Source of the DNA: Acidimicrobiia bacterium
Lineage (GTDB): Bacteria > Actinomycetota > Acidimicrobiia > Spongiisociales > ZC4RG35
DNA length: 64,000 bases
Reading direction: 5' to 3'
Assembly: GCA_036375695.1 (NCBI GenBank)
Contig: DASVBU010000025.1
Coordinates: 1,879 to 65,878 of the forward strand
Under the pieces are notes generated by a model that saw only the letters and a list, made by a program, of their open reading frames with translations, ran no database searches and was not told the origin of the DNA. The number at the start of each line of letters is the position of its first letter. Position 1 is the first letter of the stretch. Shown here piece after piece: positions 44,634 to 63,314 of the stretch. Position numbers and translations under genes: made by a program.

Positions 44634-44671
44634 ACCGGCATTGTGGTCGACGCGCCAGACTCGCCGGACCT

Positions 44672-44737
44672 CTCCCCCGTGTAGCGGCAGCGGAGCGGGG
44701 GAGTACCCCGAAGGGGGGAGGGGGCGAGCGAAGCGAG
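44672..44737 (+). repeat. GC-rich hairpin repeat element, copy 2
   Basis: CTCCCCCG-16 nt-CGGGGGAG hairpin (44672-44703), followed by TACCCCGAAGGGGGGAGGGGGCGAGCG. Matches the reverse complement of 9341-9410. Confidence 0.7.
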
Positions 44738-45373
44738 CTATAGACGGGTGTCGTGCTCGCGACCGACCACGAACCACACCGCCTTCACCGGCTCGTCGCC
44801 GTCGTTGTAGAGACGATGGGGTGTCGTCGAGTCGAAGGCGATCGAGTCGCCGGGGCCCAGCTCGTACTCCTGGAACCCGATCTGGACGGTGAGGGTCCCC
44901 GAGATCACGTATCCGTACTCACGCCCGTGGTGGCGCATCAGTGACATGTCCGGTGTCGAGGAACCACCCACGTCGTAGGTGGCCAGGAGGAAGTCGATGC
45001 CCTCCTCGCCCTCCGCCGTCAGCTCCTCCCACCTGACACCGGACGCCAGGTCGATCACCTGGCGGCTACCGGTCCTCGCCACCGGCGCACTGGCGTTCTC
45101 CTCCACTGTGTGGTCGGGCTCGGTGTAGTCGTCCCCTCTGATGATGCGATCGAGGGACACGTCCAGTTCGGTGACGATGGCGTACAGCGTGCCCACGGAT
45201 GGCTTGGAGACGCCACTCTCCAGCTGGGAGATCAGGCTCGCCGACAGTCCGAGCCGCCGCGCCAATTCGCGCTGGCTCAGCCCCGCTTTGATCCGCTCCT
45301 CCCGGAGACGGGCGCCAATGCCATCGAGTGCCCCCAGTGAGGTGTCGGCGGCGCCGCTCACATCAGCATCCAT
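44738..45373 (-). CDS. XRE-family transcriptional regulator with C-terminal cupin domain
   Basis: HTH block LSQRELARRLGLSASLISQLESG. Cupin block GREYGYVISGTLTVQ...GDSIAFDSTTPHRLYN. Confidence 0.85.
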   Translation of the reverse strand: MDADVSGAADTSLGALDGIGARLREERIKAGLSQRELARRLGLSASLISQLESGVSKPSVGTLYAIVTELDVSLDRIIRGDDYTEPDHTVEENASAPVARTGSRQVIDLASGVRWEELTAEGEEGIDFLLATYDVGGSSTPDMSLMRHHGREYGYVISGTLTVQIGFQEYELGPGDSIAFDSTTPHRLYNDGDEPVKAVWFVVGREHDTRL

Positions 45374-46128: not shown

Positions 46129-47325
46129 TTGAAGGGCGACCTGGCGGTCATCGGGGGCGGTCTCATCGGGTTGGCCACCGCCCGCGCCTATCTCGAGGAG
46201 CGGCCCGGTGCCTCGGTGACCGTGTTCGAGAAGGAGGCGCGCCTGGCCGGCCATCAGAGCGGTCACTCCAGCGGTGTCATCCACTCCGGTCTCTACTACC
46301 GGCCCGGATCGCTCAAGGCGAGGCTGGCGGTGGCGGGAGCGGAGGAGATGTACCGGTTCGTCGAGGCAGAGGGCATCGGGTTCGCCCGGTCGGGGAAGCT
46401 GGTGATCGCAGTATCACCAAGGGAGCTGCCGGCGCTCGACGAACTGGAGCGACGGGGCCACGCCAACGGACTCGCGGGTCTGCGACGCATCGGGTCCGAG
46501 GAGATAACCGAGATCGAACCGGCCGCCACCGGGTTGGCGGCCCTGCACGTGCCTGCTGCAGGGGTGACCGATTTCGTCGCCGTTGCCGAGCGTCTCGCAG
46601 CCAGGCTCGCCGAGCAGGGTGTCGTGATCCGAACGGGCACCGGTGTCACGGGCATCTCCGAACGAGGGGATCACGTCGAGGTCGTTGCCGGAGGAGAGAC
46701 GCATCGCTTCGAGAATCTCGTCAACTGCGCCGGTCTCCAATCCGACCGGGTGGCGGCGATGGCCGGCGTGGACGCCGGAATCCGGATCGTCCCGTTCCGG
46801 GGCGAGTACTTCAACCTCGTCGGCCCGCTCTCCGAGCGAGTGAGGGCCTCGATCTACCCCGTGCCCGACCCCAGGTATCCGTTCCTCGGCGTCCACTTCA
46901 CCAGAGGCGTGGATGGATCTGTCCACGTCGGGCCCAATGCCGTCCTCGCGTTGGGCAGGGAGCAGTACCGGGGGGAGCGGCCCAACCTGGCGGACATCGC
47001 CGAGCTGATCCGGTTCGGTGGTTTCTGGAGACTGGCCGCGCAGAACATCCCGGCGGGCGCAAGGGAGATGGTCTCGAGATGGCGTCGGCTCTATGCCCGG
47101 CAGGCACGACGGCTCGTCCCGGGAGTGACCGCCACGGATCTCGGCCCCGGTGGGGCCGGGATCAGGGCCCAGGCAGTCGATCGGCGGGGCAAGCTCGTCG
47201 ACGACTTCGTCATCGAGCGCTCGGACCGGGCAGTCCACGTCCTCAACGCCCCCTCACCAGGCGCCACGGCATCCCTGGCCATCGGTCGGCACATCGCGAA
47301 AGTGATCGCTCTGGGTGCACGCTGA
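46129..47325 (+). CDS. L-2-hydroxyglutarate oxidase-like FAD-dependent oxidoreductase
   Basis: DLAVIGGGLIGLATA...FEKEARLAGHQSGHSSGVIHSGLYYRPGSLKA is the LhgO-type N-terminal pattern. TTG start. Confidence 0.8.
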   Translation: MKGDLAVIGGGLIGLATARAYLEERPGASVTVFEKEARLAGHQSGHSSGVIHSGLYYRPGSLKARLAVAGAEEMYRFVEAEGIGFARSGKLVIAVSPRELPALDELERRGHANGLAGLRRIGSEEITEIEPAATGLAALHVPAAGVTDFVAVAERLAARLAEQGVVIRTGTGVTGISERGDHVEVVAGGETHRFENLVNCAGLQSDRVAAMAGVDAGIRIVPFRGEYFNLVGPLSERVRASIYPVPDPRYPFLGVHFTRGVDGSVHVGPNAVLALGREQYRGERPNLADIAELIRFGGFWRLAAQNIPAGAREMVSRWRRLYARQARRLVPGVTATDLGPGGAGIRAQAVDRRGKLVDDFVIERSDRAVHVLNAPSPGATASLAIGRHIAKVIALGAR

Positions 47326-47356
47326 GGCCCTACCTGTGTAGTGTCACTGTTCACCG

Positions 47357-48244
47357 ATGAACAGCCAGCGCGCAGTGGCGGTGTTGGGGACCGGTCGCAT
47401 GGGAGCCGCGATGGCCTCCACCATCATGCGATCCGGCCTGCCCGTCACGGTGTGGAACCGGAGCCGCGACAAGGCCGACGAACTGGCCGGGCGCATCGGC
47501 TGCACGGTCGCAGAAAGCGCCGCGTCCGCGGCGGCGGGCGCGGCCTACGTGATCACGAGCCTGGCCGACGACGCCGCGGTAAAGGCGGTCTATCTCGGCG
47601 ATGACGGTGTCGCCTCGGGCGTCGGCCCGGGGCAGGTCGTGATCGACACCTCGACCATCGACCCGGCCACCGTCCACGAGATCGGGGCCGCCATCGACGC
47701 CGCAGGTGCCACGTTCCTCGACTGCCCTGTGTCGGGGAGTGTCTCGGTGGTCGAGGCCGGGAACCTCACGATCATGGCCGGGGGCGAGGCCGCCGAGGTG
47801 GAAGCAGCCCGACCCGCCCTCGACCCGATTGCGGCCCGGATCATCCACACCGGCCCCAGGGGAACCGGCGCGGCGATGAAACTGGCCATCAATTCACTGG
47901 TGCACGCCCTCAATGTGGCCCTGTCCGAGGCGCTGGTCCTGGCCGAGCGCGCCGGCATCGACCGGAAGATCGCCTATGAGGTCTTCGCCAGCGGGGCCAG
48001 CGGGGCCCCGTTCGTCCAGTACAAGCGGCAGGCGTTCGAGGACCCGGAGAACGCGGCCGTGGCATTCAGCCTCGACCTGGTGCAGAAGGACATGGAGCTG
48101 ATCACGGGGCTGGGCCAACGTACGGGCACTCCGATGGCCGCTGCGGACACGGTGCTCCGCCTGGTCCGTGAGGCCAACGAGGCTGGTTTCGCCGACCGCG
48201 ACATGAGCGCGGTCGCCGAGTTCCTGAGAGGGAGGGCTGGCTGA
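47357..48244 (+). CDS. NAD(P)-dependent oxidoreductase, 3-hydroxyisobutyrate/tartronate-semialdehyde reductase family
   Basis: 295 aa with VAVLGTGRMGAAMA (Rossmann motif), DCPVSGS and a C-terminal 6PGDH-like helical domain. Confidence 0.85.
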   Translation: MNSQRAVAVLGTGRMGAAMASTIMRSGLPVTVWNRSRDKADELAGRIGCTVAESAASAAAGAAYVITSLADDAAVKAVYLGDDGVASGVGPGQVVIDTSTIDPATVHEIGAAIDAAGATFLDCPVSGSVSVVEAGNLTIMAGGEAAEVEAARPALDPIAARIIHTGPRGTGAAMKLAINSLVHALNVALSEALVLAERAGIDRKIAYEVFASGASGAPFVQYKRQAFEDPENAAVAFSLDLVQKDMELITGLGQRTGTPMAAADTVLRLVREANEAGFADRDMSAVAEFLRGRAG

Positions 48245-49170
48245 TGTCCCATCACATCGTGAGGAAGGCCGAGGACATGGTCTTCACCACACCCTCGTGG
48301 TTCGCCGGGTACAGCGAGGGATACACCGCCGACTACTCGATCTCCGAGACCGCCGGATCGGTGCACACCGGCTTCCGCGTCTCCAGGCTGGAGCCCGGCG
48401 GCTGGGTCGGCTCCCATCTCCACTCCTTCGAGGAGAGCTTCTTCGTCATCGACGGCGACATCGTGGTCGACACTCCAGACGGCAGCGTCGCCGCCACCAC
48501 GGGTGATTACGGCCTGTTGCCCACTGCGACTCCTCACGCCATTCGCAACGTATCGGACCGGACCGTCACCTTCGCCGAGGTGATGGTCCCGGTCCCTCGG
48601 GAGCGTTTCGACTTCGACACCTATCGGGTCGGCCCGGTGCCCCAGGGCGAGCCGATCTCGATCGATCCGAGGGACCCGCGGAATCGCAACTACGGCCACA
48701 TCGCGCCGGAGAACATGGCCGCGGAGAACCAGACCCAGGACAAACTGGCCCAGAGCGCCTCGATGCGCACCGCCCTCCTGGTCTACAGCGGGATCACCGT
48801 GAAGATGATGATCGATTCCGACCTCGGGTCGAACCAGCACACCATGTTCATGGTCCAGTACGTCCCGGGCGGGTTCGCCGGGCCGCACGATCATCCCCTC
48901 GAGGAGGCATACCTGTTCCTGGAGGGCGAGGCGCTGGGGGTCTTCGACGGCGAGGAGTACCACCTCAAGGCGGGTGACCTCGCGTGGGCGGGCGTCGGCT
49001 GTGTTCACGAGTTCCGGAACCTGTCGCCTGACGGCGTGGTCCGGTGGCTGGAGACGGCGGCTCCGCAGCCGCCCGGCCGTCACTCGTACCGCTTCCGCCG
49101 GGATTGGACCTATCTGGAGAATGCCCTGGTCCGGGAACTCGGGCCGGGCGGAAAGGACAACGATGAGTGA
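48244..49170 (+). CDS. bicupin protein (two metal-binding cupin motifs)
   Basis: 308 aa. Cupin motif 1 is GSHLHSFEESFFV...PHAIRN and motif 2 is GPHDHPLEEAYLF...VHEFRN. 1-nt overlap (TGATG) with the upstream gene. Confidence 0.75.
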   Translation: MSHHIVRKAEDMVFTTPSWFAGYSEGYTADYSISETAGSVHTGFRVSRLEPGGWVGSHLHSFEESFFVIDGDIVVDTPDGSVAATTGDYGLLPTATPHAIRNVSDRTVTFAEVMVPVPRERFDFDTYRVGPVPQGEPISIDPRDPRNRNYGHIAPENMAAENQTQDKLAQSASMRTALLVYSGITVKMMIDSDLGSNQHTMFMVQYVPGGFAGPHDHPLEEAYLFLEGEALGVFDGEEYHLKAGDLAWAGVGCVHEFRNLSPDGVVRWLETAAPQPPGRHSYRFRRDWTYLENALVRELGPGGKDNDE

Positions 49171-50416
49171 GTTCCCTGTTGCCACCAGCCCCGCCCCGGG
49201 CGTGATGGGGGTGGACTGGGAGATCCGGGTCGACTTCGAGAGGCTCCGGCAGTACCGGATCGACCGCGTCCGCCAGATGCTCGAGGAGTTCGACCTGGGT
49301 GCCGTCCTCCTCTTCGAGACCTCCAACATCCGCTATGCCACCTCGACCCAGATCGGCTACTGGGCGTTCAACAAGGGCGAGCGCTACGCCCTGATCACCC
49401 GGAACGGTCGGCCCCGGATCTGGGATTTCGGATCGGCGGCCAAGGCCCACCGGCTCCAATTGCCTCATCTGTACGACACCGAGAACTCGGTGGGCGGCAA
49501 CACCGGCCTCCAGGGCGCCATCGGCCCGGAAGCCGGGCTGCACAAGCGCGCCGCCCAGGAGCTGAAGTCCGTCCTGGCCGCCGAGGGACTCGAGAACGAG
49601 CGGCTCGGCGTGGACATGGCCGAGACCGCCGTGATCCTCGCCCTGCAGGCGGAGGGCCTCGACGTGGTCGACGGCCAGCAGGCGATGATGCGGGCCCGGG
49701 AGATCAAGAGCCCAGACGAGATCGTCCTGCTCACCCAGGCCTGCGCCATGGTCGACGGCGTCTATCACGGCATCTTCGAGATGCTCAAGCCGGGGATCCG
49801 TGAGTCGGACGTCGTCGGCTTTGCCCACGCCAAGCTCTTCGAGATGGGCTCGGAGTTCGTGGAGGCGATCAACTCGATCGCCGGTGAACGGTGCTCGCCG
49901 CATCCGCACGTGTTCAGCGACCGCCTGATCCGCCCCGGCGACCAGGCCTACTTCGACATCATCCACACCTTCAACGGCTACAAGACCTGCTACTACCGCA
50001 CCTTCGTGGTCGGCCGGGCGACACAAGCCCAGCGGGATGCCTTCGCCAAGGCCAGGGAATGGATGGATGCCGCCATCGACCTGGTAAGGCCGGGCACCAC
50101 CACCGACCAGATCGCCAAGGTGTGGCCGCGTGCCGAGGAGTTCGGTTTCGCCGACGAGATGGACGCCTTCGGCCTCCAGTTCGGTCACGGTGTGGGTGTG
50201 GGTCTCCACGAGCGACCGATCATCAGCCGTCTCAACTCCCTCGACAGCCCCATCGAGATCCAGGAGGGGATGGTGTTCGCCCTGGAGACCTACGCCCCGG
50301 CCGCCGACGGTCGGTCGGCCGCCCGGATCGAGGAGGAGGTGGTCGTCACCGCCGACGGCTGCAAGGTCATCACCCTGTTCCCGTGCGAGGAGTTGATGGT
50401 CGCCAATGCCTACTGA
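49163..50416 (+). CDS. M24-fold enzyme (creatinase/Xaa-Pro peptidase-like)
   Basis: ATG 49163 overlaps the bicupin stop by 8 nt. Creatinase_N-like N-domain plus pita-bread C-domain blocks (IKSPDEIVLL, GDQAYFDIIH, GHGVGVGLHERP, FALETY, IEEEVVVT). Confidence 0.85.
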   Translation: MSEFPVATSPAPGVMGVDWEIRVDFERLRQYRIDRVRQMLEEFDLGAVLLFETSNIRYATSTQIGYWAFNKGERYALITRNGRPRIWDFGSAAKAHRLQLPHLYDTENSVGGNTGLQGAIGPEAGLHKRAAQELKSVLAAEGLENERLGVDMAETAVILALQAEGLDVVDGQQAMMRAREIKSPDEIVLLTQACAMVDGVYHGIFEMLKPGIRESDVVGFAHAKLFEMGSEFVEAINSIAGERCSPHPHVFSDRLIRPGDQAYFDIIHTFNGYKTCYYRTFVVGRATQAQRDAFAKAREWMDAAIDLVRPGTTTDQIAKVWPRAEEFGFADEMDAFGLQFGHGVGVGLHERPIISRLNSLDSPIEIQEGMVFALETYAPAADGRSAARIEEEVVVTADGCKVITLFPCEELMVANAY

Positions 50417-51476
50417 TATCGCCGATCCCCGCTACGACTACGCCCTACGCCCGCCGCGTCTGCCCGAGCCGGTCGACGAGTCGATGGCGTCACAGCCGAT
50501 CGACACGGACACCCGACTCGGGATGTACCGCAACCTCCATCTGCTGAGACAGTGGGGGAAGCGGGCCCACGATCTGTTCCTGCAGAACCTGGTCAAGGGG
50601 ACGACGCATCTGTCGCTGGGCCAGGAGGCGGTGGCGACGGGTTTCGGCGCGGCGATGAGGCCGGACGACTACACCTTCGCCACCTATCGCGGACACGCCC
50701 ACTCGCTTGCCCGCGGGATGGATCCCGGCGAGGCGCTGGCCGAGTTGCTCGGCCGGTCCAACGGGGTGCTGGGGGGCAAGGGCGGCTCCATGCACCTCAC
50801 CGACGTGTCCAAGGGGATGATGGGCTCATACGCCATCATCGGCGCCCATCTCTGCATCGCCAACGGCGCGGCGTGGGCCGCCCAGATGCGCGGGTCGGAC
50901 CAGGTGGCGGTGTGCTTCTTCGGCGACGGGACCACCAACATCGGCGCCTTCCACGAGGCCCTCAACATGGCGAAGATCTGGAACCTGCCGGTCGTCTTCG
51001 TCTGCGAGAACAACCTCTACATGGAGTACACGCCGATCGACCTGGTGACGGCGGTGCCCCGACCGGCGGCCGACCGCGCACCGGCGTACGGTCTCGAGCC
51101 CGTGGTGGTGGATGGCAACGACCCGGATGCCGTCTACGTGACCGCCAGGGACGCGATCCAGAAGGCCCGCGCCGGCGGTGGCCCGTCGCTCATCGAGGCC
51201 CAGACCTACCGCCACGGAGGGCACTCCCGGGCCGATCCCGGCAAGTACCGGCCACCGGACGAGGTCGAGGCGTGGAAGGCCCGGGACCCCATCCCGATGT
51301 ACCACGACCGTCTGCTGTCGCTCGGTACGCCCGAGGCCACGCTCACCGGAATCGAGCGCGAGGTCGCCGCCGTCATCGACGCCGCCACCGAGTTCGCCAA
51401 GAACGGTCCGGATCCGGGTGAGGGCGAACTGCTGGTCAACGTCTGGGCCGACGGAGGAGCGGAATGGCGCAACTGA
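50406..51476 (+). CDS. TPP-dependent 2-oxoacid dehydrogenase E1 component, alpha subunit
   Basis: TPP motif FFGDGTTNIGAFHEALNMAKIWNLPVVFVCENN, and YRHGGHSRADP. Confidence 0.9.
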   Translation: MPTDIADPRYDYALRPPRLPEPVDESMASQPIDTDTRLGMYRNLHLLRQWGKRAHDLFLQNLVKGTTHLSLGQEAVATGFGAAMRPDDYTFATYRGHAHSLARGMDPGEALAELLGRSNGVLGGKGGSMHLTDVSKGMMGSYAIIGAHLCIANGAAWAAQMRGSDQVAVCFFGDGTTNIGAFHEALNMAKIWNLPVVFVCENNLYMEYTPIDLVTAVPRPAADRAPAYGLEPVVVDGNDPDAVYVTARDAIQKARAGGGPSLIEAQTYRHGGHSRADPGKYRPPDEVEAWKARDPIPMYHDRLLSLGTPEATLTGIEREVAAVIDAATEFAKNGPDPGEGELLVNVWADGGAEWRN

Positions 51477-52447
51477 GCTACCGCGAGGCGGTCGCCTACG
51501 GCATCGCCCAGGAGATGCGCCGCGACCCGCGGCTGGTGATGCTCGGTGAGGACATCGCGGCCGCCGGCGGTGTCTTCAAGACCACCGTCGGGCTGCTCGA
51601 CGAGTTCGGGCCCGAGCGGGTGAAGGACACGCCGATCTCCGAGCAGGCGATCATCGGCGCCGCCATGGGGGCTGCGATGACCGGCATTCCGGTGATCGCC
51701 GAGCTGATGTTCTCGGACTTCCTGGCGGTCACCTGGGACATGATCGCCAACCAGGTGGCCAAGACCCGCTACATGACCGACGGACAGGTCACCATCCCCC
51801 TGGTCATCCGCACGGCCAACGGCGGAGGCGTCCGCTTCGGCGCGCAGCACTCCCAGTCGGTGGAGAACTGGTGCATGATGATCCCGGGCCTCAAGGTGGT
51901 TGCCCCGGCGACTCCCACCGACGTGGTCGGGCTGATGGCTGCAGCCGTCCGCGACCCCGACCCGGTCGTCTTCTTCGAGCACAAGGCACTCATGGCGATG
52001 TCCGAGGAGATCCCTGACGGCGAGATCGTCGACGAACTGGGCAAGGCGAAGGTCGTTCGCGAGGGCACGGACGTGACCATCGCCGCCCTGGCCGCCATGG
52101 TCCCCAGGGCCCTGGAGGCAGCGCATCGACTGGCGGAGGCCGGGATCTCAGCAGAAGTCATCGATGTCCGTAGCCTCGTCCCATTGGACACCCGGACGAT
52201 CCTCCGCTCGGTCGCCAAGACCGGGCGTTTCTACACGGTCGAGGAGAACCCGAGGGTCCTGGGCTGGGGCGCCGAGGTGGTGTCTATCGTCTCCGATGAG
52301 GCGTTCTGGGATCTCGACGGGCCCTGCGTCCGGATCACGACGCCTCACATCCCCCTCCCGGCGGCATCGTCACTCGAGGACCTGGCCATCCCTTCGGTGG
52401 ACCGCATCTACGAGACGGTCGTGAAGACGGCCGGAGGACCTGCTTGA
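51464..52447 (+). CDS. 2-oxoacid dehydrogenase E1 component, beta subunit
   Basis: 327 aa with LGEDIAAAGGVFKTT, DTPISEQAIIGAAMGAAMTG and a transketolase-like C-terminal domain. Confidence 0.9.
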   Translation: MAQLSYREAVAYGIAQEMRRDPRLVMLGEDIAAAGGVFKTTVGLLDEFGPERVKDTPISEQAIIGAAMGAAMTGIPVIAELMFSDFLAVTWDMIANQVAKTRYMTDGQVTIPLVIRTANGGGVRFGAQHSQSVENWCMMIPGLKVVAPATPTDVVGLMAAAVRDPDPVVFFEHKALMAMSEEIPDGEIVDELGKAKVVREGTDVTIAALAAMVPRALEAAHRLAEAGISAEVIDVRSLVPLDTRTILRSVAKTGRFYTVEENPRVLGWGAEVVSIVSDEAFWDLDGPCVRITTPHIPLPAASSLEDLAIPSVDRIYETVVKTAGGPA

Positions 52448-53724
52448 GCAAGCTGCTCCTGCGCGAAGGTTGCGTTCTCACGTTGGGGGCCCGGACGGCC
52501 AATCACGCCCGTGCCGACGTCCTCATCGAGGACGGGAAGATCGCCGAGATCGGCGCCGGTGTCCGGGCACGTGACGCCGAGATCATCGACGCCACGGACA
52601 CGATCGTCATGCCGGGGTTCGTCGACTGTCACCGGCAGATGGCGCACACACTGTTCCGCGGAACCGGCCACCTGGGTGACCCCCCGGCTGCCGGGCATTT
52701 CGAAGACGACGACATCCATGCGGCCACCCTGCTCGGGCTGCTGTCGGCGGCAGAAGCGGGAGCGACCACCGTCGTGGACTGGTGCGAGGCTGCCGATGAA
52801 GCCAGGCTCGACGCGGTCCTGCGGGCCCATGCCGAGGCGGCGATCCGGTCGGTGGTGGTGGTGGCACGTCCGCCCGGCACCGATGTCGGGGTCTGGAAAC
52901 GGCTGCTGGCTTCGGACACACCCGAGAACGTCACCCTCGCCGCCGGCTCCGAGGAACCGGGCTCGGTTCCCGACCACGAGGTCCAGGAGCAGTGGGCGAT
53001 GGCGCGAGACGCGGGCCTTCGGATCCACGCTCGAGCCGGTCTCTCGGAGGCGGGCCGGGGCGCCATCCGACGTCTCGCCGACGCCGGAGCGATGGGCCGC
53101 GACGTGACCCTGGTCCATTGCACCCGACTGTCCGACGCCGACTTCGACGCCATAGCGTCGAGCGGAGCGTCGGTGGTCCTCGCCCCCTCCGATGAGATGG
53201 CAACCGGAGCGGGGATGCCGCCCGTACAGGATCTCATGGATCGTCAGATCAAGCCGGGTCTCGGGGTGGGGAAGGAGACCCTGGCACCGGGAGACATCTT
53301 CGCCCAGATGAGGGGAGTCATCTCGATCCAGCACGCCCGCTACTTCGATCTCAAGCTCGCGGGCAAGGCCGGTCTGCCCAACCTCCTCAACACACGTGAG
53401 ACGATCAAGTTCGGGACCTCGTACGGGGCGGCGGCCGTCGGTCTCGGCGACGTCACCGGTTCCCTCGAGGTCGGGAAGCAGGCCGACCTCGTCGTGCTGC
53501 GGACCGACCGACCCAACATCTGGCCCATCAACGATCCGATCGGGGCCGTGGTGTGGGGCATGGACACCTCGAATCTCGATTGGGTGATCGTGGCCGGCCG
53601 GCCCGTGGTGCGTGACGGCCGTCTCGTGGGCGACACCTCCGAGGTGCGCCGTCTCGCCGAGGAGGCACGACAGCGGGTGGCCACCCGGGCCGGCCTCCTC
53701 GAGGTGGCCGGGGGCCCGGCGTGA
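52444..53724 (+). CDS. amidohydrolase-family protein with degenerate metal/catalytic ligands
   Basis: TTG start with TTGA overlap of the E1-beta stop. Chlorohydrolase/cytosine-deaminase-like fold. The strand-1 motif reads PGFVDCHRQ (HxQ, 52630-38) and the strand-8 position reads GVGKET where the paralog has SVDVET. Confidence 0.8.
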   Translation: MSKLLLREGCVLTLGARTANHARADVLIEDGKIAEIGAGVRARDAEIIDATDTIVMPGFVDCHRQMAHTLFRGTGHLGDPPAAGHFEDDDIHAATLLGLLSAAEAGATTVVDWCEAADEARLDAVLRAHAEAAIRSVVVVARPPGTDVGVWKRLLASDTPENVTLAAGSEEPGSVPDHEVQEQWAMARDAGLRIHARAGLSEAGRGAIRRLADAGAMGRDVTLVHCTRLSDADFDAIASSGASVVLAPSDEMATGAGMPPVQDLMDRQIKPGLGVGKETLAPGDIFAQMRGVISIQHARYFDLKLAGKAGLPNLLNTRETIKFGTSYGAAAVGLGDVTGSLEVGKQADLVVLRTDRPNIWPINDPIGAVVWGMDTSNLDWVIVAGRPVVRDGRLVGDTSEVRRLAEEARQRVATRAGLLEVAGGPA

Positions 53725-54791
53725 CCACGCTCCGACGGCCGTCGTCCGCCCTGACCCAGTTCGTGGTCGCTTCCCGGTACATGCCGGTGTTCATCGCCCT
53801 GGGCCTGCTCGTCGTGATAGCGGCCACCTGGGTTCCGGCGGCCCTGGGTGAGCAGGCGCTGCGCGCCATGGCAGCCGGTGGGGCGATTCTCGCCATCGCC
53901 GCCCTCGGGCAGATGCTGGTGATCATGACCGCCGGTATCGATCTCTCCACGTCGAGCACGATCACCATGGCCGCGGTGCTGATGGTGGGGATCGGGAACC
54001 AGTCCGGTCAGCCACTGCTCCGGGCGATCCTCACCGCGATCGGGGTGGCCGCATTTATCGGGCTGGTCAATGGGATCCTCATCGGCGGGCTCAAGCTCAA
54101 CCCCCTGATCGTCACGCTGGCGGTGGGCCAACTCGTGGTGGGCCTGGTGACTCGCTACTCGCGCGGATTCCCCGTCCAACTGCCGGTGCCCGAGCCCCTG
54201 TCCGATTGGACGGATGGCCGCTTGTTGGGCATGAGCAACGTCTTCTGGGTCGCGGCTGCCCTCACGCTCTTCCTGATCCTCGGATTCCGCTACACCACCC
54301 TGGGCCGCCGCTTCCAGTCGGTCGGCGCCAACCCGGTGGCCTCCCACGTGGTGGGCCTGCGGATCAATGTCTACCAGGTGGGGGCCTACGTGGTCGCCGC
54401 GGTCCTCTACGCCGCGGCCGGGATCCTCCTCGCCGGTCAGCTGGAAGTACCCGGCGTGGCCGCGGGTCAGCCCTTCTTCCTCAGCCCGATAGCCGCAGTC
54501 GTCATCGGCGGGGCATCCCTGGCCGGCGGTCTCGCCAGCTCCTTCGCCACTTCCGTCGCCGCGTTCTTCCTCACCTGGCTCAACCAGGTGATGCGGGTGC
54601 TGGGCCTCTCCACGGCCTGGCAGAACGTGGTGTTCGGTGCGGTGATCATCGCCGGAATGCTGGTCTCAGGTGACCGGATCATCCGCATCGTGGAGCGAGT
54701 GCTCCGCGAGCGTCGGAGGGGCCGGAAGCCGGGAGGAAACACGAAATTGGAGATGAGCGGGTCGAGTCAGAAAGGAGAACCGACGTCCTGA
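53721..54791 (+). CDS. CUT2-type (ribose/sugar-like) ABC transporter permease 1
   Basis: 356 aa, multi-TM, with MTAGIDLSTSS, typical of RbsC-like permeases. GTGA overlap with the upstream gene. Confidence 0.85.
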   Translation: MTTLRRPSSALTQFVVASRYMPVFIALGLLVVIAATWVPAALGEQALRAMAAGGAILAIAALGQMLVIMTAGIDLSTSSTITMAAVLMVGIGNQSGQPLLRAILTAIGVAAFIGLVNGILIGGLKLNPLIVTLAVGQLVVGLVTRYSRGFPVQLPVPEPLSDWTDGRLLGMSNVFWVAAALTLFLILGFRYTTLGRRFQSVGANPVASHVVGLRINVYQVGAYVVAAVLYAAAGILLAGQLEVPGVAAGQPFFLSPIAAVVIGGASLAGGLASSFATSVAAFFLTWLNQVMRVLGLSTAWQNVVFGAVIIAGMLVSGDRIIRIVERVLRERRRGRKPGGNTKLEMSGSSQKGEPTS

Positions 54792-54817
54792 CGAGCCAGT
54801 CTCGACGGAGGAGGAAT

Positions 54818-56188
54818 ATGAGAAGAGTCAGAGTGATCGGGTGGCTGGCGGTGCTGGCCCTCGTGATCGCCGCCTGTGGCGGTGGCACGCAGGGGTCCAC
54901 CACCACAACTGCCGCCCCACAGACGACGACCACGGCGGGTGACACCACCACCACCGCGGAGCCAGGCACCACACAGCCGCCATCGGACAACCCGCTGGAG
55001 GAATTCGGGGAGAGCCTGGATGCCGACCCGGCGTTGATCGAGAAGGCCTTGGGCCCGGTGACGCCGTCTGACGAGGCGAGCTGGAACATCGTTCTGGCTT
55101 CGATCGCCAGAGCCCATCAGGACCTCGACGACGCAACGATCGCCAAGGCGATCGAGTGCTGGCGCAATGCCGAGTGCGACACCGGTTCCGGTGGCGACCT
55201 CGTGATGGGCTATGCCGACGGTGGTGGCAACGACGTCAACGTCTGGCGGTCGGTGAGCAAGATGGAAGCCGTCCTCCAGGCCCTGACGTACCCGGAGATC
55301 GGGACGATCGTGGCGACGGCCGCCAACTTCAACCCGGACCCGGCGGTGCACGCCAACGACATCCGGTTCCTGATCAACCGGGGCGTCGACTTCATCGTCG
55401 GCTACCCCGACATGGGCATCGCCATCGCCGACGCCATCAAGGAAGCAGACGACGCGGGGATCCCGTATGTGTCGTTCTCGGCCGGCTATGTCGGTCTGCC
55501 CGACCAGGAAGGCGCTCTCGTACCCGGTGAGGACTACCTGACGGTGGTCGGTGAGGACCTGTGCGCGCTCGGTGAGAGCTTCGCCGAGATCCTCAACGAG
55601 AACGTCGGGGAGGGCAAGGTCGCCATCCTCGGTGGCACGCCGAACAACGCCCTGTCGCTGGGGTGGCAGCGGTGCACGATCGATGCGCTCGCCGACTCGA
55701 TCACGCTGGTCAACCCGCCGGCCAACCGGGACACCACCACGGGTGACACCAACTGGTTCAACCCGATCATCCCCGACATCTTCGAGGGATTGCTGGTGGC
55801 CAACCCGGACATCCGGGGCTACGCCTACGAGTACGCCGACGGCATGCTCTCCGGGTTCGACGCCTACGAGGAGCTCGACATCCCGATCGAGAACCTCACG
55901 CTGGCTCTCCGGACCGACGAGCAGAGCCTGTTCTGCGACTGGGCGGAGCGCAACGAGCCCACCTACAACATCTGGTATTCGGCCGGTGGCAACTTCCAGT
56001 CCCGGACCGGTGTCACCGCGGCCATGCTCCACATCAAGGGAGCTGAGGTTCCTGCGCAGATCATCGTCCCGCACGTGATGCGTCAGGTGACCGCGGACGA
56101 CTGCGACCCGAACCGGCCCAACCCGGTCGTGTCCGGCACGTCGCTCGTGCCCGACTCGATCCTGAGCCAGATGTTCCAGGCGGGTTAG
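54818..56188 (+). CDS. ABC transporter substrate-binding lipoprotein (periplasmic-binding-protein type I-like)
   Basis: GGAGGAGGA RBS, lipobox VIAACGG and a Thr-rich linker. 456 aa. Specificity cannot be read from the sequence. Confidence 0.78.
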   Translation: MRRVRVIGWLAVLALVIAACGGGTQGSTTTTAAPQTTTTAGDTTTTAEPGTTQPPSDNPLEEFGESLDADPALIEKALGPVTPSDEASWNIVLASIARAHQDLDDATIAKAIECWRNAECDTGSGGDLVMGYADGGGNDVNVWRSVSKMEAVLQALTYPEIGTIVATAANFNPDPAVHANDIRFLINRGVDFIVGYPDMGIAIADAIKEADDAGIPYVSFSAGYVGLPDQEGALVPGEDYLTVVGEDLCALGESFAEILNENVGEGKVAILGGTPNNALSLGWQRCTIDALADSITLVNPPANRDTTTGDTNWFNPIIPDIFEGLLVANPDIRGYAYEYADGMLSGFDAYEELDIPIENLTLALRTDEQSLFCDWAERNEPTYNIWYSAGGNFQSRTGVTAAMLHIKGAEVPAQIIVPHVMRQVTADDCDPNRPNPVVSGTSLVPDSILSQMFQAG

Positions 56189-56195
56189 TAGCCAA

Positions 56196-57785
56196 GTGAC
56201 CGAACGCGATCGTCGAGAGGGGTCGACCAACCCGGTCCTCGAGCTGACGGGCGTGTCCCGCCAGTTCGGAGCCGTTCGGGCTTTGACCAACGTCGACTTC
56301 GACTGTCGCCCCGGCGAGGTTCACGCCTTGGTCGGGGAGAACGGGTCGGGCAAGTCGACCCTTCTCGGCATCGCGTCGGGTTTCGTCGAGCCCGACACCG
56401 GGGAGGTCCGGATCGGAGGGAAGCGTCTCCGCACCGATTCCCCGGCTCTCGCCCGCAAGCTCGGGCTGGCAATCGCCTATCAGGAGACCTCGCTCGTCCA
56501 CGCCGAGCCGGTCAAGAACAACCTCTACCTCGCCGCCGCCTTCGGTGAGCGGCCGCCGTATTGGAACCGGAAGCGGTGGGCCCGGAAACTGCTCGCCGAG
56601 TTCGATCTCGATCTCGAGCTGTTTCCCGACTCCCCGGCCGGCTTCCTCACACTGGCGGAACGGCAGCTCTTCGAAGTCGCCAAGGCGCTGGTGTCCAACC
56701 CCAAGGTGCTCCTCCTCGACGAGCCGACGACGGCTCTCGGCCCCGACGAGGTCGAGGCGCTGCATCGCACCGTCAAGGCGTGTCGCCAAAGGGGCGTGGG
56801 GGTGGTCTACGTCAGCCACCGCCTCCCCGAGATCATCGAGATAGCCGACCGCATCACGGTGCTGCGCGACGGTCGGAACGTGGGGACCTTCGACGCCCGG
56901 AAGGTCACCGAGCACGAACTCGTCGAGTTGATCGTCGGCCGACCCATCGAGGTCGCCTTCCCGCCACCGGCAGCCCGGCGGGCAGGGGATCGCGAGGTCC
57001 TGGTGGTCGACGGTCTCCAGGGCCAGTCCTTCGGACCGGTCAGCTTCACGCTGGAGGCAGGCGAAGTGGTCGGTATCGCCGGGGCGGAGGGCAACGGCCA
57101 GCCGCAGCTGTTCGACTGTCTCGCCGGAAGGGTTCCGCCCAAGGCGGGGCGAGTGGTGTGCGACGGGAAGGAGCTCACCCTCATCTCCACCCACGAGGCG
57201 GCCAGGGCCGGGATCATGCTGTTGCCGGGCGACCGCAAACGCGAGGCGCTGATGCCGGTGCTGGGGGTGCGGGTCAACTCGACCATCCAGTCCTTGGGGA
57301 ACTTCGCAGTCGGCGGCCTGCTGCGGAGGAGAAAGGAGCGCCGGGCGGTCACCGATCTCATCGAAGAGCTGGAGATCCGAACGCCGTCGCTGGAGCAGCC
57401 GGTGGAGTTCCTCTCCGGCGGCAACGCCCAGAAGGTCTCGGTGTCCCGGACCTTCCTGCGGGAGCCCGTGGTGATCATGGCCTACGAGCCCACCCAGGGA
57501 GTCGACGTCGGCTCCCGCTTCGACATCTACAAGGCGCTTCGGAAGCGCACCGACACAGGTGCCGCCCTCCTGATCAAGTCGTCGGACCCCATCGAGCTGG
57601 CCGGTCTCTGCGACCGGGTCCTGGTCATGTCCCGGGGCACCATCGTGGAGGAGATACCGGGCGACGAGCTGGACGAGAGGCGGATCACCGAGGCCATCGT
57701 TCGCGGCCCCGGCCTGGCCCGCTCTGGACGCTCGCCTCTGGGCGTGGCCATGCCCAAGTCCTCGAGCGCGGGGAACGGCGGATGA
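56196..57785 (+). CDS. CUT2-type ABC transporter ATP-binding protein (duplicated NBD)
   Basis: NBD1 has GENGSGKST and LLLDEPTTALG. NBD2 has LSGGNAQK and a degenerate Walker A, as is typical for RbsA-like ATPases. Confidence 0.92.
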   Translation: MTERDRREGSTNPVLELTGVSRQFGAVRALTNVDFDCRPGEVHALVGENGSGKSTLLGIASGFVEPDTGEVRIGGKRLRTDSPALARKLGLAIAYQETSLVHAEPVKNNLYLAAAFGERPPYWNRKRWARKLLAEFDLDLELFPDSPAGFLTLAERQLFEVAKALVSNPKVLLLDEPTTALGPDEVEALHRTVKACRQRGVGVVYVSHRLPEIIEIADRITVLRDGRNVGTFDARKVTEHELVELIVGRPIEVAFPPPAARRAGDREVLVVDGLQGQSFGPVSFTLEAGEVVGIAGAEGNGQPQLFDCLAGRVPPKAGRVVCDGKELTLISTHEAARAGIMLLPGDRKREALMPVLGVRVNSTIQSLGNFAVGGLLRRRKERRAVTDLIEELEIRTPSLEQPVEFLSGGNAQKVSVSRTFLREPVVIMAYEPTQGVDVGSRFDIYKALRKRTDTGAALLIKSSDPIELAGLCDRVLVMSRGTIVEEIPGDELDERRITEAIVRGPGLARSGRSPLGVAMPKSSSAGNGG

Positions 57786-60256
57786 GCGTCCCCATCGAAT
57801 CCACCCGCATGGATCGGCTCCGCCAGAAATGGCGGATGGTGGTGCGCGAGGCGAGAGAGAAGAACCGATGGCGGAAGATCATCCGGTTCCGGCTCTGGAT
57901 GCCCATCGTCCTCCAGACGATCTTCGTCATCGGCCTGGCTCTCTACACCAACTCACGGTTCCCGGGCTTCCTCAACGCCAACAACATCAAACAGCTGCTC
58001 ATTCTGGCGCTGCCTCTGATCGTCTCCGCGATCGCCCAGACCCATGCCCTCCTGGTCGGTTACATCGACCTGTCGGTGGGTGCGATGATCAGTCTCGGTG
58101 TGGTGATCGCCTCGTTCCAGATAGGGGCCTCGGCCACACCGGGCCAGATCTTCATCGGGATGGCCCTGATCCTCGGGTGTGCCGTGGCGCTCGGCCTGGT
58201 CAACTCTCTGCTCATCCGGGGCGCCAAGATCCCTTCGATCATCGTGACGCTGGCCACGATGAGCATCCTCAACGGTTTCTCGCTCAACATGCGCCCGTCG
58301 GCGCAGGGCGTGATCAGCCCGACCCTGGTGGGCTGGCTGACGGCGTCGGTGGGCCCGATCCCGATCGCTTTCATCGTCGTCGCCCTCGGCGCGGCGGCAC
58401 TCGACGCCTGGCTTCATGGATCGGGGTCGGGTCTCGAGCTGCGGGCGGTCGGTTACGACGACCGGGCGGCGCGGCGGAGCGGCGTGCGCACCACCTGGAT
58501 CCGGGTCAGAGCCCTCCTCCTCAGCGCCATCCTCGCCGCGGTGGCCTCGTTCCTGGTCATGGCCCGGTCTCCGATCGGCAACGCCCAGATCGGCGACACC
58601 TTCGCCCTGTCCAGCATCACGGCGGCGGTCCTCGGCGGCGCCTCCCTCGCCGGCGGCCGAGCGACGTTCATCGGCTCCACCGTGGCCTCGATCCTCCTCG
58701 CGCTGATCCTCACGGTCCTGCCCTACCTGGGCCTCTCCAACACCGACGGGCTGATGATCATCGGGGCGCTGGTGCTCCTCGGCGTGATCCTCTTCCAGGT
58801 GGGCGACCTCAAGGAGCTGGTGAAGCGGAACTACAAGCGGGCCCGCCGCCTCGTCATCGGGTCCCGCCCGCCCAAGCCGGTGCAGCTCCCGGTGTTCTTC
58901 CCCGAGGGAACCGCCGTCCAGGTGATGTCCAATGGCCGGAAGCTGATCAAGGGCGGGACGGTGCTCAGCCTCGACCCGCAGGTTGGTGACTTCGCCCAGG
59001 GTGACGTGCTCATCGAAGGCTCCAAGATCGTGGCGGTCGGTCCCGGGCTCAACGGCTCGATGGGGGGCACCGAGGTCATCGACGCCACCGGGATGATCGT
59101 GATGCCCGGGTTCGTCGACACCCACCGGCACATCTGGGAAGGGCTGCTCCGCAACATCGGCACCGACGTGCCATTGGAGGGTCGCACCTCCTACATCACC
59201 TTCGTGCTCCACAAGCTGGCGCCGGCGTTCCGCCCCGAGGACGCGTACGTCGGGAACCTGGTCTCCGCATTGGGGGCCATCGACGCCGGGATCACGACTC
59301 TGCTCGACTGGTCCCATATCCAGGGGTCTCCGGCGCACACCGACGCAGTGGTCCAGGCCTTGAGGGACTCCGGGATGCGGGCGGTGTTCGCCTACGGGTT
59401 CCCCTGGTGGGGCAAGTGGGAGGAGAGGCAGCCGTCCTGGTTCGTCCGTTGCGCCACGGAGCACTTCTCCACCAAGGACCAGCTCCTCACACTGGCCCTC
59501 GCCGCGCCGGGCCCCGAGTTCACCGACTTCGAGGTGACCCGGGACCACTGGAAGCTGGCCCGGGAGACCGAGGCACGCATAACCACACATGTCGGGGTCG
59601 GGACGTACGGCCAGGAGAGGAAGGTGCAGCGATTCGGCGAGGCAGGTCTGCTCGGCCCGGACACGACCTACATCCACTGCACCACGCTCAACGACACCGA
59701 GATCCAGATGATCGTGGACACGGGCGGGACCGTCTCCCTGGCCTCGCCGGTGGAGATGATGATGGGGCACGGCATGCCCCCGATCCAGAAGTTCCTCGAC
59801 CGCGGCCTATCGCCCAGTCTGAGCGTCGACGTCGAGACCAACGTCCCGGCCGACATGTTCAACCAGATGCGCAACGTTCTCGCCTTGCAGCGGTCGATCG
59901 CCGCCGAGTCGGGCAAGCCGATGGCGACACCACGGGACGTCCTGACCTGGGCCACGGTCGAGGGCGCCCGCGCCAACGGCCTTGACCACAAGACGGGGAC
60001 CCTGACGCCGGGCAAGGAGGCGGACCTGATCATGCTCCGGACCGACCGTCTCAACGCCACGCCGATCAACGACCCGGCCGCTGCCGTGGTGCTCGGGATG
60101 GACACCTCGAACGTCGACACGGTGGTCATCGCCGGGCGGGTGATGAAGCGGAACGGGCGCCTGCTCCGTGTCGACTGGAAGGCCGTCCGGGAGGCCGCGC
60201 TCGCGGCCCGGGATCACGTCATCGAGCGATCCGGCTTCAAGCTGCCCAAGATCTGA
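57782..60256 (+). CDS. single reading frame encoding CUT2 ABC permease 2 (about 360 aa) fused to an intact amidohydrolase (about 443 aa)
   Basis: ATG 57782 (ATGA overlap with the ATPase stop). The permease part contains VGYIDLSVGAM. No stop codon occurs before the amidohydrolase part (MSNGRKLIKGGTVLSLD from ATG 58925), which has PGFVDTHRH at 59111-59131, ITTHVG, YIHCTT and SVDVET. The upstream part of the 1231-aa ORF-track frame (56561-57781) is rejected. Confidence 0.7.
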   Translation: MSVPIESTRMDRLRQKWRMVVREAREKNRWRKIIRFRLWMPIVLQTIFVIGLALYTNSRFPGFLNANNIKQLLILALPLIVSAIAQTHALLVGYIDLSVGAMISLGVVIASFQIGASATPGQIFIGMALILGCAVALGLVNSLLIRGAKIPSIIVTLATMSILNGFSLNMRPSAQGVISPTLVGWLTASVGPIPIAFIVVALGAAALDAWLHGSGSGLELRAVGYDDRAARRSGVRTTWIRVRALLLSAILAAVASFLVMARSPIGNAQIGDTFALSSITAAVLGGASLAGGRATFIGSTVASILLALILTVLPYLGLSNTDGLMIIGALVLLGVILFQVGDLKELVKRNYKRARRLVIGSRPPKPVQLPVFFPEGTAVQVMSNGRKLIKGGTVLSLDPQVGDFAQGDVLIEGSKIVAVGPGLNGSMGGTEVIDATGMIVMPGFVDTHRHIWEGLLRNIGTDVPLEGRTSYITFVLHKLAPAFRPEDAYVGNLVSALGAIDAGITTLLDWSHIQGSPAHTDAVVQALRDSGMRAVFAYGFPWWGKWEERQPSWFVRCATEHFSTKDQLLTLALAAPGPEFTDFEVTRDHWKLARETEARITTHVGVGTYGQERKVQRFGEAGLLGPDTTYIHCTTLNDTEIQMIVDTGGTVSLASPVEMMMGHGMPPIQKFLDRGLSPSLSVDVETNVPADMFNQMRNVLALQRSIAAESGKPMATPRDVLTWATVEGARANGLDHKTGTLTPGKEADLIMLRTDRLNATPINDPAAAVVLGMDTSNVDTVVIAGRVMKRNGRLLRVDWKAVREAALAARDHVIERSGFKLPKI

Positions 60257-62327: not shown

Positions 62328-63314
62328 TCACGACTCCGCCCGGCGGCGCAGCTCCGGAAGAAGCTCCTTGCCCGCCATCTGGAGGATGCGATCGGGATCT
62401 GTGCTGGCGATCTGAACGGCCACGTAGTCGGCCTGGATCTCGGTCACGAGCGGAGTGTATGCCTCGACCAACTCGTCGATCGTCGAGACGATCGTGTATT
62501 TGCCGAGGATCTCGTCACGGTCCATCGCGTCGGCCTCGATCCGCAGCTCCATGGGATCGACCGCTTCGAGGCGGCTCGGCGCCCGCAGACCGCGCATCGA
62601 TCCGAGCGCCTTCCACGCCTCTTCGGCATCTCGAGCGAACACCGTCCACCGGGTCGCCATGACCGTCGTCGGCTTGTCGCCGGACGCGGCCGTGAACGGC
62701 CCGATGACCTTCGTCCTGGTGTCGTCGGGGTCCTTGACGCTGGTGATCAGCCCGTCGGCATGGGTCCCGGCGAAGGCGGCCGACTTTGGCCCCCCGGCGG
62801 CCATCCAGATCGGGATGGGGTGCATGGGGGGGCTGTAGAGGCGAGCCTTGTCGGTGGTGTAGTACTCGCCCCGGAAGTCGAGCTTCTCCCCGGCGAAGAG
62901 GCGGTGGATGATCTCGAGCGCCTCACGCATGCGGGCGATGCGCTCCGAGTAGCCCGGGAAGGGAAAGCCGAGCGGGCCTTCGTTCAGATTCTCGCCGGTG
63001 CCCACTCCCAAGATGAAGCGTCCTCTCGAGAGTCGGTCCGTGGTCGCTGCCGCCTGGGCGATCAGTGCGGGGTGGTAGTGGAAGAGGGGACAGGTGACGC
63101 TGGTGGCGAGCTCGACGCGCGCGGTCCTGGCCGCCACGGCTCCGAGCCAGCCCCATACGAACCCAGCGGCAGATTCGTCGTCCACCCAGGGATGGAAATG
63201 GTCGGACCCGAGGACGACGTCGAAGCCGACCTCCTCGGCGAGAACGGCTTGGTCTACGAGGACCTCGGGCTGGTAGGACTCGTGGCTGCAGAGCCAGGCG
63301 AACTTCTTCGGCAT
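62328..63314 (-). CDS. LLM-class F420-dependent oxidoreductase (G6PDH-family-like)
   Basis: 328 aa with FAWLCSHESYQP, LGSDHFHPW and GRFILGVGTGENLNE. Confidence 0.82.
   Translation of the reverse strand: MPKKFAWLCSHESYQPEVLVDQAVLAEEVGFDVVLGSDHFHPWVDDESAAGFVWGWLGAVAARTARVELATSVTCPLFHYHPALIAQAAATTDRLSRGRFILGVGTGENLNEGPLGFPFPGYSERIARMREALEIIHRLFAGEKLDFRGEYYTTDKARLYSPPMHPIPIWMAAGGPKSAAFAGTHADGLITSVKDPDDTRTKVIGPFTAASGDKPTTVMATRWTVFARDAEEAWKALGSMRGLRAPSRLEAVDPMELRIEADAMDRDEILGKYTIVSTIDELVEAYTPLVTEIQADYVAVQIASTDPDRILQMAGKELLPELRRRAES

Follow-up and report, generated by a model that had tools for sequence, protein, structure and literature searches.

The 64,000-nucleotide stretch of DNA examined here (the window, to which all positions refer) comes from an Acidimicrobiia bacterium and carries the genes of a predicted ATP-binding cassette (ABC) importer, one of whose two permeases shares a single open reading frame (ORF) with an amidohydrolase. 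Genes named below lie on the forward strand unless marked otherwise. This ORF extends over positions 57782..60256 and encodes 824 amino acids. Its translation contains one stop codon, the terminal one (60254-60256), in agreement with the initial annotation of an uninterrupted 824-codon frame. The ATG at 57782 overlaps the stop codon of the preceding ATPase gene within the sequence ATGA, and the coupling of the two genes that had been proposed at this point is therefore borne out by the letters themselves.

Three segments can be distinguished in the encoded protein. Residues 1-341 (57782..58804) form a transmembrane domain (TMD) of the CUT2/RbsC type, for which the Pfam match, hydropathy and the helices of an AlphaFold2 (AF2) model are concordant; the match to BPD_transp_2 (PF02653) covers residues 69-333 and scores 70.5 bits relative to a cut-off of 26.8. 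Residues 342-385 (58805..58936) constitute a linker, whose bounds were set from conservation together with the structure model. Residues 386-824 (58937..60253) form an amidohydrolase domain that is recognized by Pfam, by NCBIfam (the NF006056/PRK08204 subfamily) and in the AF2 model, with Amidohydro_1 matching residues 439-787 of the same polypeptide at an E-value of 9e-33. The four ligand motifs noticed at the outset were each found in place, namely HRH (H448 and H450, 59123-59131), ITTHVG (H603, 59588-59590), YIHCT (H632, 59675-59677) and SVDVET (D683, 59828-59830). One detail of the earlier description needs correction, in that the linker had been put at about 28 codons and we count 24 between ...ARRL (residue 357) and M382. 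A GTG-ATG pair encoding V381 and M382 (58922..58927) is present as reported, and is a candidate internal start site.

An open frame of this kind in a single genome is not significant as evidence for a fusion, and the comparative data decide the matter. The window has a GC content of 67-69%, and at 68% GC approximately 2% of random codons are stops. By our own arithmetic, the chance of encountering 24-45 codons without a stop is then ~0.4-0.6, and because high GC makes long open frames common, a stop-free linker is weak evidence by itself. Indeed, the fusion frame is open from position 56561, that is, through the ATPase gene, which is itself read in another frame. These observations favour the explanation that the fusion is an artefact of sequencing or assembly, or reflects a recent and accidental loss of a stop codon in a high-GC genome.

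However, the fused architecture recurs throughout a large group of relatives. More than 120 protein clusters (defined at 90% identity) match the whole ORF, with identities of 76-89% and a query coverage of 97-100% that is nearly always 99-100%. These proteins are 807-825 amino acids long, most of them 815-825, and every one contains both Pfam domains. Their sources are labelled as proteins from metagenome-assembled genomes (MAGs) of Acidimicrobiia or Actinomycetes, and they carry automatic names such as 'amidohydrolase family protein'. For comparison at the DNA level, we used 80 loci with 72-89% identity, one genome per GTDB species, nearly all of them Acidimicrobiia/Actinomycetota MAGs. Permease and hydrolase share one open frame in 80 of 80 species loci; each locus holds a frame of >810 codons that contains PVEMMMG, with the permease marker motif present in 74 and HRHIWE in 77. 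Comparison of orthologous loci, which had been suggested as a means of distinguishing fused from separate genes, thus reveals a frame that is general in the clade rather than specific to one isolate. It is through this recurrence, together with constraint on the linker, that the single-genome observation becomes significant.

Constraint on the linker was assessed by aligning the codons of the window and of the 80 related loci (81 in total), with the linker taken as residues 342-385. Coding-frame stops are found in the linker of 0/81 loci. The +1 frame contains stops in 66/81, and two of the reverse frames do so in 80/81 and 78/81. Two non-coding frames, namely +2 and one of the reverse frames, also lack stops in most of the relatives, a further point in favour of chance. 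The linker nevertheless hardly varies in length: 79/81 loci have 45 codons, and the two exceptions have 43 and 47, despite an average nucleotide identity of only 61% over residues 363-385. The linker begins as a basic, helical extension of the tenth transmembrane (TM) helix (DLKELVKRNYKRARRL, to about residue 360) and continues as a proline-rich coil that carries the conserved motif LPxF(F/Y)PxG. R355, R356, P370 and P374 are invariant within it, as is R386 just beyond.

The Nei-Gojobori ratio of nonsynonymous to synonymous substitution rates (dN/dS) is 0.23 for the linker. The permease has a value of 0.19, and the hydrolase, at 0.12, is under tighter constraint than either of the other segments of the fused protein. 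Within the linker, the value is 0.11 for residues 342-362 and 0.39 for residues 363-385. Entropy by codon position follows the order 3 > 1 > 2 in every segment, the linker included. Because the dN/dS value is low, variation concentrates in the third codon position, the length is fixed and certain residues are invariant, we conclude that the linker is translated in the fused frame and is constrained as protein. The comparison likewise indicates that the fusion is real and that selection maintains it in soil Acidimicrobiia, across at least 80 species. An artefact, or the accidental stop loss that had been raised as a caveat, would have to account for the same frame in 80 of 80 species and >120 clusters, obtained from many assemblies and sequencing platforms, as well as for the linker's fixed length, its dN/dS value and its conserved motif. 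We consider this explanation to be extremely improbable.

Relatives in which the two domains are encoded by separate genes would argue against a maintained fusion, and apparent examples do exist. An exhaustive search of representatives at 50% identity returned just one full-length fused match, P0121, and the remaining strong matches in that set are free-standing hydrolases of 440-530 amino acids with at most 57% identity, or fragments. Searches with the hydrolase domain recovered many shorter proteins (422-774 amino acids, 79-86% identity), most of which are partial and derive from contigs of 1.4-7 kb. Several candidates for a two-gene arrangement were considered and rejected. In L085, a 1-nucleotide indel falls within the linker; in L086, the linker is intact and in frame, and the first β-strand of the hydrolase contains a frameshift; in L087, almost all genes are frameshifted. 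These three are Microflora Danica (MFD) assemblies from ENA, which we take to be nanopore-based, judging from their isolate names. L088 (P0507, 426 amino acids) was rejected on its gene table alone, in which no permease gene is called between ATPase and hydrolase.

A fifth candidate, L089:2501-4069 (Logan DRR655371, P0460), has an ORF that begins within the ninth TM helix. Homology with the permease ends near residue 292, where the sequence abuts an unrelated gene on the opposite strand; there is no transporter upstream, and genes for an M24 hydrolase, E1 alpha and E1 beta follow downstream. We consider this locus to be either the rearranged remnant of a hydrolase anchored by two TM helices or a chimeric contig, and in neither case as evidence for a two-gene relative. 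None of the long-contig candidates checked is an accurately sequenced relative in which a stop codon separates the two domains. Two-gene relatives, which had been named as grounds for abandoning the fusion, thus proved to be frameshifted or truncated assemblies wherever split-looking loci were checked. As a side observation, single-base frameshifts in long-read MAGs cause gene callers to divide the fusion into a 'permease' and a 'hydrolase', and the resulting artefactual short proteins populate protein databases, with one cluster (P0434) having 624 member sequences.

It could also be that a free, soluble hydrolase is made in addition to the fusion, or is even the main product, by internal initiation at GTG 58922 or ATG 58925. 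The window does carry GTG-ATG at codons 381 and 382, a start-type codon (ATG, GTG or TTG) occupies one of these two positions in 50/81 loci, and free-standing relatives begin near the same place. However, codon 382 is ATG in just 8/81 loci. Codon 381 mostly encodes valine, and its 67 valine codons are divided among GTG (38), GTC (20) and GTT (9), which in our judgement matches ordinary codon usage in a high-GC genome. In 21/81 loci, codons 372-388 are devoid of any ATG, GTG or TTG. A suitably spaced motif resembling a Shine-Dalgarno (SD) sequence occurs in only 3/81 loci; the window itself has no GAGG closer than 14-17 nucleotides 5′ of the candidate starts. The gene for the substrate-binding lipoprotein (SBP) of the same operon provides a contrast, with GGAGGAGG positioned 5 nucleotides before its own ATG, and so clearly is equipped for independent initiation. 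Furthermore, were the free hydrolase the functional product, there would be no need for purifying selection to act on the linker. The proposed internal start is therefore present as codons, and does not persist across the 81 loci; production of free hydrolase in this manner does not appear to be a conserved feature, and we regard it as unlikely, whether as an additional or as the main product.

The second permease, hereafter permease 2, is predicted to begin with a basic, amphipathic helix, followed by 10 TM helices on the basis of hydropathy and the AF2 model (residues 39-59, 66-92, 99-113, 120-147, 152-169, 192-213, 238-262, 268-290, 295-316 and 320-341). The same number of transmembrane segments is most often predicted for CUT2 permeases (PMC3654945). 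The model used was built from 114 sequences and has a mean predicted local distance difference test (pLDDT) score of 77.6, with values of 60-84 for the permease and >90 for the hydrolase. A model built from a shallow alignment of 23 fusions had a mean pLDDT of 42 and was discarded. A search of PDB sequences for a solved structure homologous to either permease returned none, even at E=1.

With the predicted boundaries, the loops of permease 2 assigned to the cytoplasm contain 29 lysine and arginine residues, compared with 1 in the other loops. The loop between the sixth and seventh TM helices (SGSGLELRAVGYDDRAARRSGVRT, residues 214-237, 58421..58492) contains five of these basic residues as read from its sequence. 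This loop (LRAVGYDDRAARRSGVRT) resembles the EAA coupling loop that contacts the nucleotide-binding domain (NBD). Because an EAA-like loop would be cytoplasmic and four TM helices follow it, the C-terminus of the tenth helix should be cytoplasmic as well. The permease is thus predicted to have an N-in/C-in topology, and the model places the hydrolase as a tethered domain on the cytoplasmic face of the membrane. The membrane-anchored enzyme and cytoplasmic C-terminus that had been proposed at the outset accord with the 10 predicted helices, the distribution of basic residues, the EAA-like loop and the fused frame in all 80 species. Separately, the N-terminal segment of permease 2 (57782-57895, residues 1-38) is unusually long and is predicted to be helical, with 13 lysine or arginine residues among its 38 positions and invariant W30-R31-K32 and R37-L38-W39. 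This basic segment might contact the ATPase or the hydrolase.

With 518.3 bits, the fused hydrolase domain clears the cut-off of 391 set for NCBIfam NF006056 (PRK08204, 'hypothetical protein'), and it falls far below the cut-off of every NCBIfam equivalog. Its best PDB sequence matches, with E-values of ~1e-31 to 1e-25, are AtzA, 3hpa, 4f0r, 7ww2 and TrzN. Foldseek gives target-normalized TM-scores of 0.8-0.9 to barrels of the AtzA, TrzN and 5-methylthioadenosine/S-adenosylhomocysteine (MTA/SAH) deaminase type at 20-26% sequence identity, and its matches include 4v1x, 4f0r, 3hpa and 1p1m. The AF2 model contains the expected (β/α)8 barrel plus N/C-terminal β-sandwich, with pLDDT >90. Each of the metal-site residues (H448/H450, H603, H632 and D683) shows conservation of 90% or more among 114 fused and free-standing relatives. 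On these grounds, the fused domain looks like an active metalloenzyme.

Enzymes of the cog0402 group (AtzA, TrzN, and the MTA/SAH, 8-oxoguanine/isocytosine and guanine deaminases) have the same barrel and sandwich and the same HxH/His/His/Asp arrangement, but the glutamate of their HxxE motif is not shared by the domain described here. The position is occupied by H603-V-G-V, compared with H-L-A-E in 3hpa and H-I-H-E in 4f0r, and HVGVG is conserved within the hydrolase family. The family instead has its own acidic and histidine residues, which are an invariant E658, a near-invariant H663 (both in PVEMMMGHG) and E685 (in SVDVET), located within 59753-59836. This pattern suggests that the catalytic acid has been relocated, or that the chemistry is different (59588-59599 and 59753-59836). 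Because HxxE is replaced and E658, H663 and E685 are specific to the family, we do not accept automatic deaminase names, and, as its sequence reads, the domain does not belong under the label of MTA/SAH, cytosine or guanine deaminase. The JGI name '5-methylthioadenosine/S-adenosylhomocysteine deaminase' was among those rejected, given an NF012037 score of 86 bits versus a cut-off of 779 and the absence of HxxE.

The loss of the canonical HxxE glutamate would also fit a different role, in which the fused domain is a cytoplasmic, ligand-sensing regulator that gates the transporter, in the manner of trans-inhibition by the C-terminal domains of MetN, ModC and MalK. Accessory domains described for ABC importers are mostly regulatory (PMC4245157), and the amidohydrolase paralogue encoded farther upstream (see below) demonstrates that this fold can persist without its ligands under purifying selection. 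However, the metal ligands and E658, H663 and E685 are conserved in fused and free-standing proteins alike, the domain is under stronger constraint than any other part of the protein, and the known regulatory domains attach to the NBD rather than to the TMD. A purely regulatory domain therefore strikes us as somewhat less probable even than internal initiation.

Free-standing relatives of the hydrolase are ~450 amino acids long and widespread, occurring for example in Ktedonosporobacter and Rhodopseudomonas. Their gene contexts are heterogeneous, and no substrate could be inferred from these neighbourhoods. The closest of them (57% identical) adjoins a gene for an SBP of the Peripla_BP_4 type, from which we conclude that the association with transport is older than the fusion. 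The following ORF encodes 523 amino acids, is cut at the contig end and has no Pfam record. Some free-standing relatives carry N-terminal signals of the twin-arginine translocation (Tat) type, such as P0127 and P0328 (PF10518 in P0328), and additional Tat-signal candidates are present among the many free-standing matches of 490-530 amino acids. In some organisms, members of this family would therefore act outside the cytoplasm, whereas the fused domain is predicted to be tethered within it.

The linker has a pLDDT of <50 in the AF2 model and is probably flexible. This feature, together with a proline-rich composition and a conserved motif at which processing could take place, raises the prospect that the linker is cleaved to release a soluble hydrolase, with the fusion serving only for co-expression and stoichiometry. 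However, the linker lacks the signature of a known protease site, the conserved neighbourhood is without a protease gene, and translational coupling, which is used elsewhere in the operon, would provide co-expression without any fusion. We judge cleavage to be very unlikely.

The fused gene is the last in a cassette whose order (paralogue, permease 1, SBP, ATPase, permease 2 with hydrolase) is constant in all loci long enough to show it. The ATPase gene (56196..57785) encodes a 529-amino-acid protein of the RbsA/AraG type, with two fused NBDs that match Pfam ABC_tran twice. In NCBIfam, it comes closest to AraG, XylG and RbsA without reaching the cut-off of any of them, and the gene is present in 75/80 loci. 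The SBP gene (54818..56188), present in 66/80 loci, encodes a protein with the lipobox LVIAAC, a threonine-rich tether and a Peripla_BP_4 domain, and matches no NCBIfam model. Because this receptor has a lipobox and a threonine-rich tether, the system is taken to be an importer. The tether, a threonine/proline-rich stretch of ~40 residues after the lipobox, also produced a spurious Pfam match to 'New_glue'. Permease 1 (53721..54791, BPD_transp_2 at 95.3 bits) is the unfused partner TMD, and ends normally with its own stop as was initially described.

Translational coupling is evident from overlaps of 4 nucleotides at 52444 (TTGA), 53721 (GTGA, the permease 1 start on the paralogue stop) and 57782 (ATGA), and the ATPase gene starts 7 nucleotides past the SBP stop without a strong SD. 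Within the cassette, a strong SD precedes the SBP gene alone (54790-54820), a pattern that is consistent with the SBP being made in excess over the membrane complex. The system resembles CUT2 transporters (TC 3.A.1.2; RbsABC, AraFGH and LsrACDB) in having BPD_transp_2 permeases of ~10 TM segments that score above the gathering threshold, a tandem-NBD ATPase, a receptor with a Peripla_BP_4-type binding-protein fold encoded in the operon, and heterodimeric TMDs. It differs in that one TMD bears a C-terminal enzyme of 440 amino acids. The NCBIfam equivalogs for the permeases (AraH, RbsC, LsrC and others) are all far below their cut-offs, and thus the transporter does not appear to be orthologous to any named sugar system.

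Given these characteristics, we consider it likely that a single polypeptide unites permease 2 of a heterodimeric CUT2-type importer with a catalytically competent amidohydrolase that is tethered on the cytoplasmic side. In such a system, the lipoprotein SBP would deliver a small nitrogen-containing substrate, probably a heterocycle or amide judging by the fold family, and the two permeases, powered by the tandem-NBD ATPase, would translocate it. The tethered enzyme would then hydrolyse the substrate at the cytoplasmic exit. The tether would fix a 1:1 ratio of enzyme to transporter as well as the membrane location of the enzyme, and, in the manner of metabolic trapping or vectorial hydrolysis, it would make uptake in effect irreversible. 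The fusion probably arose once in a clade of soil Acidimicrobiia, from the widespread free-standing hydrolases of ~450 amino acids, and has been kept there by selection. It is reasonable to suppose that uptake is coupled to the first catabolic step, although we infer, rather than observe, that the domain is active, that it works together with the transporter and what class of compound it acts on.

Several observations weigh against this proposal and should be kept in mind by researchers who wish to pursue it. Nearly all of the relatives are MAGs, and the fused polypeptide is predicted from DNA sequence. Score-ranked search results could hide true split orthologues, and linker DNA was checked in three of the short ones. 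The genome represented by the window does carry GTG-ATG at the domain boundary, and some free hydrolase could therefore be made in this organism. The AF2 model leaves the relative placement of the permease and hydrolase domains undefined, with the linker at low confidence. The missing HxxE glutamate described above makes the chemistry of the domain, and even its activity, putative. Finally, because some free-standing relatives carry Tat signals, the hydrolase family is not intrinsically cytoplasmic.

A second amidohydrolase is encoded directly upstream of permease 1 (52444..53724) and is 41% identical to the fused domain. In the window, this paralogue has HRH changed to HRQ, the strand-5 histidine changed to arginine and the strand-8 aspartate changed to glycine, and its NF006056 score of 307 bits is under the cut-off of 391. 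The initial annotation called it inactive-looking, which holds here, where three site residues are lost, and does not hold generally, since all ligands are kept in ~31 of 58 orthologues; the aspartate is absent in ~18. Ligand-less paralogues (those of the window and of its closest relatives, L001 and L010) have dN/dS values of 0.15-0.21 among themselves, and for this reason we regard them as conserved, lineage-specific pseudoenzymes, so far as their sequences indicate, and not as decaying genes.

The paralogue gene always adjoins permease 1 on its upstream side and is translationally coupled to it. A fusion between the two was sought in the related loci and not found. Accordingly, the hydrolase-permease ... 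permease-hydrolase symmetry that had been pointed out is accurate with regard to gene adjacency, but the paralogue is only coupled and never fused to permease 1. An attractive idea is that the paralogue is a partner subunit of the fused hydrolase, mirroring the heterodimeric TMDs. One can extend this idea to an asymmetric heterodimer within a transporter-enzyme complex of fixed stoichiometry, in which the fused hydrolase and a pseudoenzyme paralogue sit beneath the heterodimeric TMDs and each imported molecule is hydrolysed on its exit path. We offer this more elaborate arrangement tentatively and think it doubtful. If true, it would represent the first ABC importer with vectorial hydrolysis and a relocated catalytic acid.

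The simpler proposal of a tethered enzyme has partial precedents. SulP anion transporters are fused to carbonic anhydrase in some genomes, and the corresponding genes are merely adjacent in others (PMC6458275; bioRxiv 10.1101/2020.07.02.185504). The fusion is attributed to Felce & Saier 2004 as discussed in these two sources. As in the present case, a transporter and an enzyme for its substrate are found in one polypeptide, and this is read as functional coupling. However, SulP proteins are secondary carriers rather than ATP-driven, binding-protein-dependent importers, the enzyme fold is unrelated, and the coupling is largely presumed there as well. Fusion of functionally linked neighbours is a familiar evolutionary event, and what it accomplishes here is something that we infer.

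Among ABC transporters, reviews describe binding-protein-dependent importers as having separate TMD and NBD chains, and accessory domains are known in the form of substrate-binding domains on the TMD (OpuA and GlnPQ) and regulatory domains on the NBD (MetN, ModC and MalK) (PMC4245157). These resemble the fused protein in carrying an extra domain that is covalently attached to a core subunit. The C39 peptidase domain of bacteriocin exporters, the peptidase-containing ABC transporters (PCATs), is a true enzyme that acts on cargo. PCATs differ from the system described here because they are exporters whose cargo is processed before transport, and in none of the named examples (OpuA, GlnPQ, MetN, ModC, MalK or PCATs) does the TMD of an importer carry a catabolic enzyme in the cytoplasm. 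In the phosphotransferase system (PTS), and with PnuC/NadR, the substrate is chemically modified on its arrival in the cytoplasm, which makes uptake irreversible. With the PTS, the modification drives transport, whereas here ATP hydrolysis by the NBDs presumably does so, with hydrolysis of the substrate following and coupling provided by the tether. Our literature searches found no description of a fusion between an ABC importer TMD and a catabolic enzyme or amidohydrolase, nor of the fused family itself. This transporter-enzyme fusion is therefore apparently undescribed, in keeping with the initial annotation, which was likewise unaware of a precedent.

If our proposal is correct, the fusion would represent a natural case in which uptake is connected directly with the first step of metabolism. 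The orphan NF006056 family would be tied to a specific transporter and SBP, which should make discovery of the substrate tractable. The system would also serve as a test case for distinguishing kinetic channelling from mere stoichiometry as the consequence of tethering, and as a possible design template for engineered modules that combine uptake and degradation. Moreover, it would constitute an abundant and conserved catabolic trait of uncultured soil Acidimicrobiia.

Upstream of the cassette in the window lies an accessory module (46129-52447) comprising, by Pfam and NCBIfam matches, genes for an L-2-hydroxyglutarate-oxidase-like (LhgO-like) flavoprotein (46129-47325), a dehydrogenase of the HIBADH family (47357-48244), a bicupin (48244-49170), an M24 creatinase/DddP-like hydrolase (48974-50416), E1 alpha (50406-51476) and E1 beta (51464-52447). 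This module travels with the cassette and is found upstream, downstream or inverted depending on the species. Because it accompanies the cassette in such differing arrangements, its distribution argues for the two serving one catabolic pathway. The module matched no pathway that we could name, and the ORFs inspected between 40 and 64 kb of the window include neither an E2 nor an E3 gene.

The genes flanking this region include those for a class-III aminotransferase (41235-42533, strand not stated), a luciferase-like monooxygenase (42615-43637, forward strand), a beta-lactamase-fold protein (43641-44777, reverse strand) and a second luciferase-like monooxygenase (62328-63314, reverse strand). 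The first three had no matches in the related loci, although they are farther out than the 9 kb of flanking sequence retrieved for those loci. The second monooxygenase gene is present in 3/80 loci.

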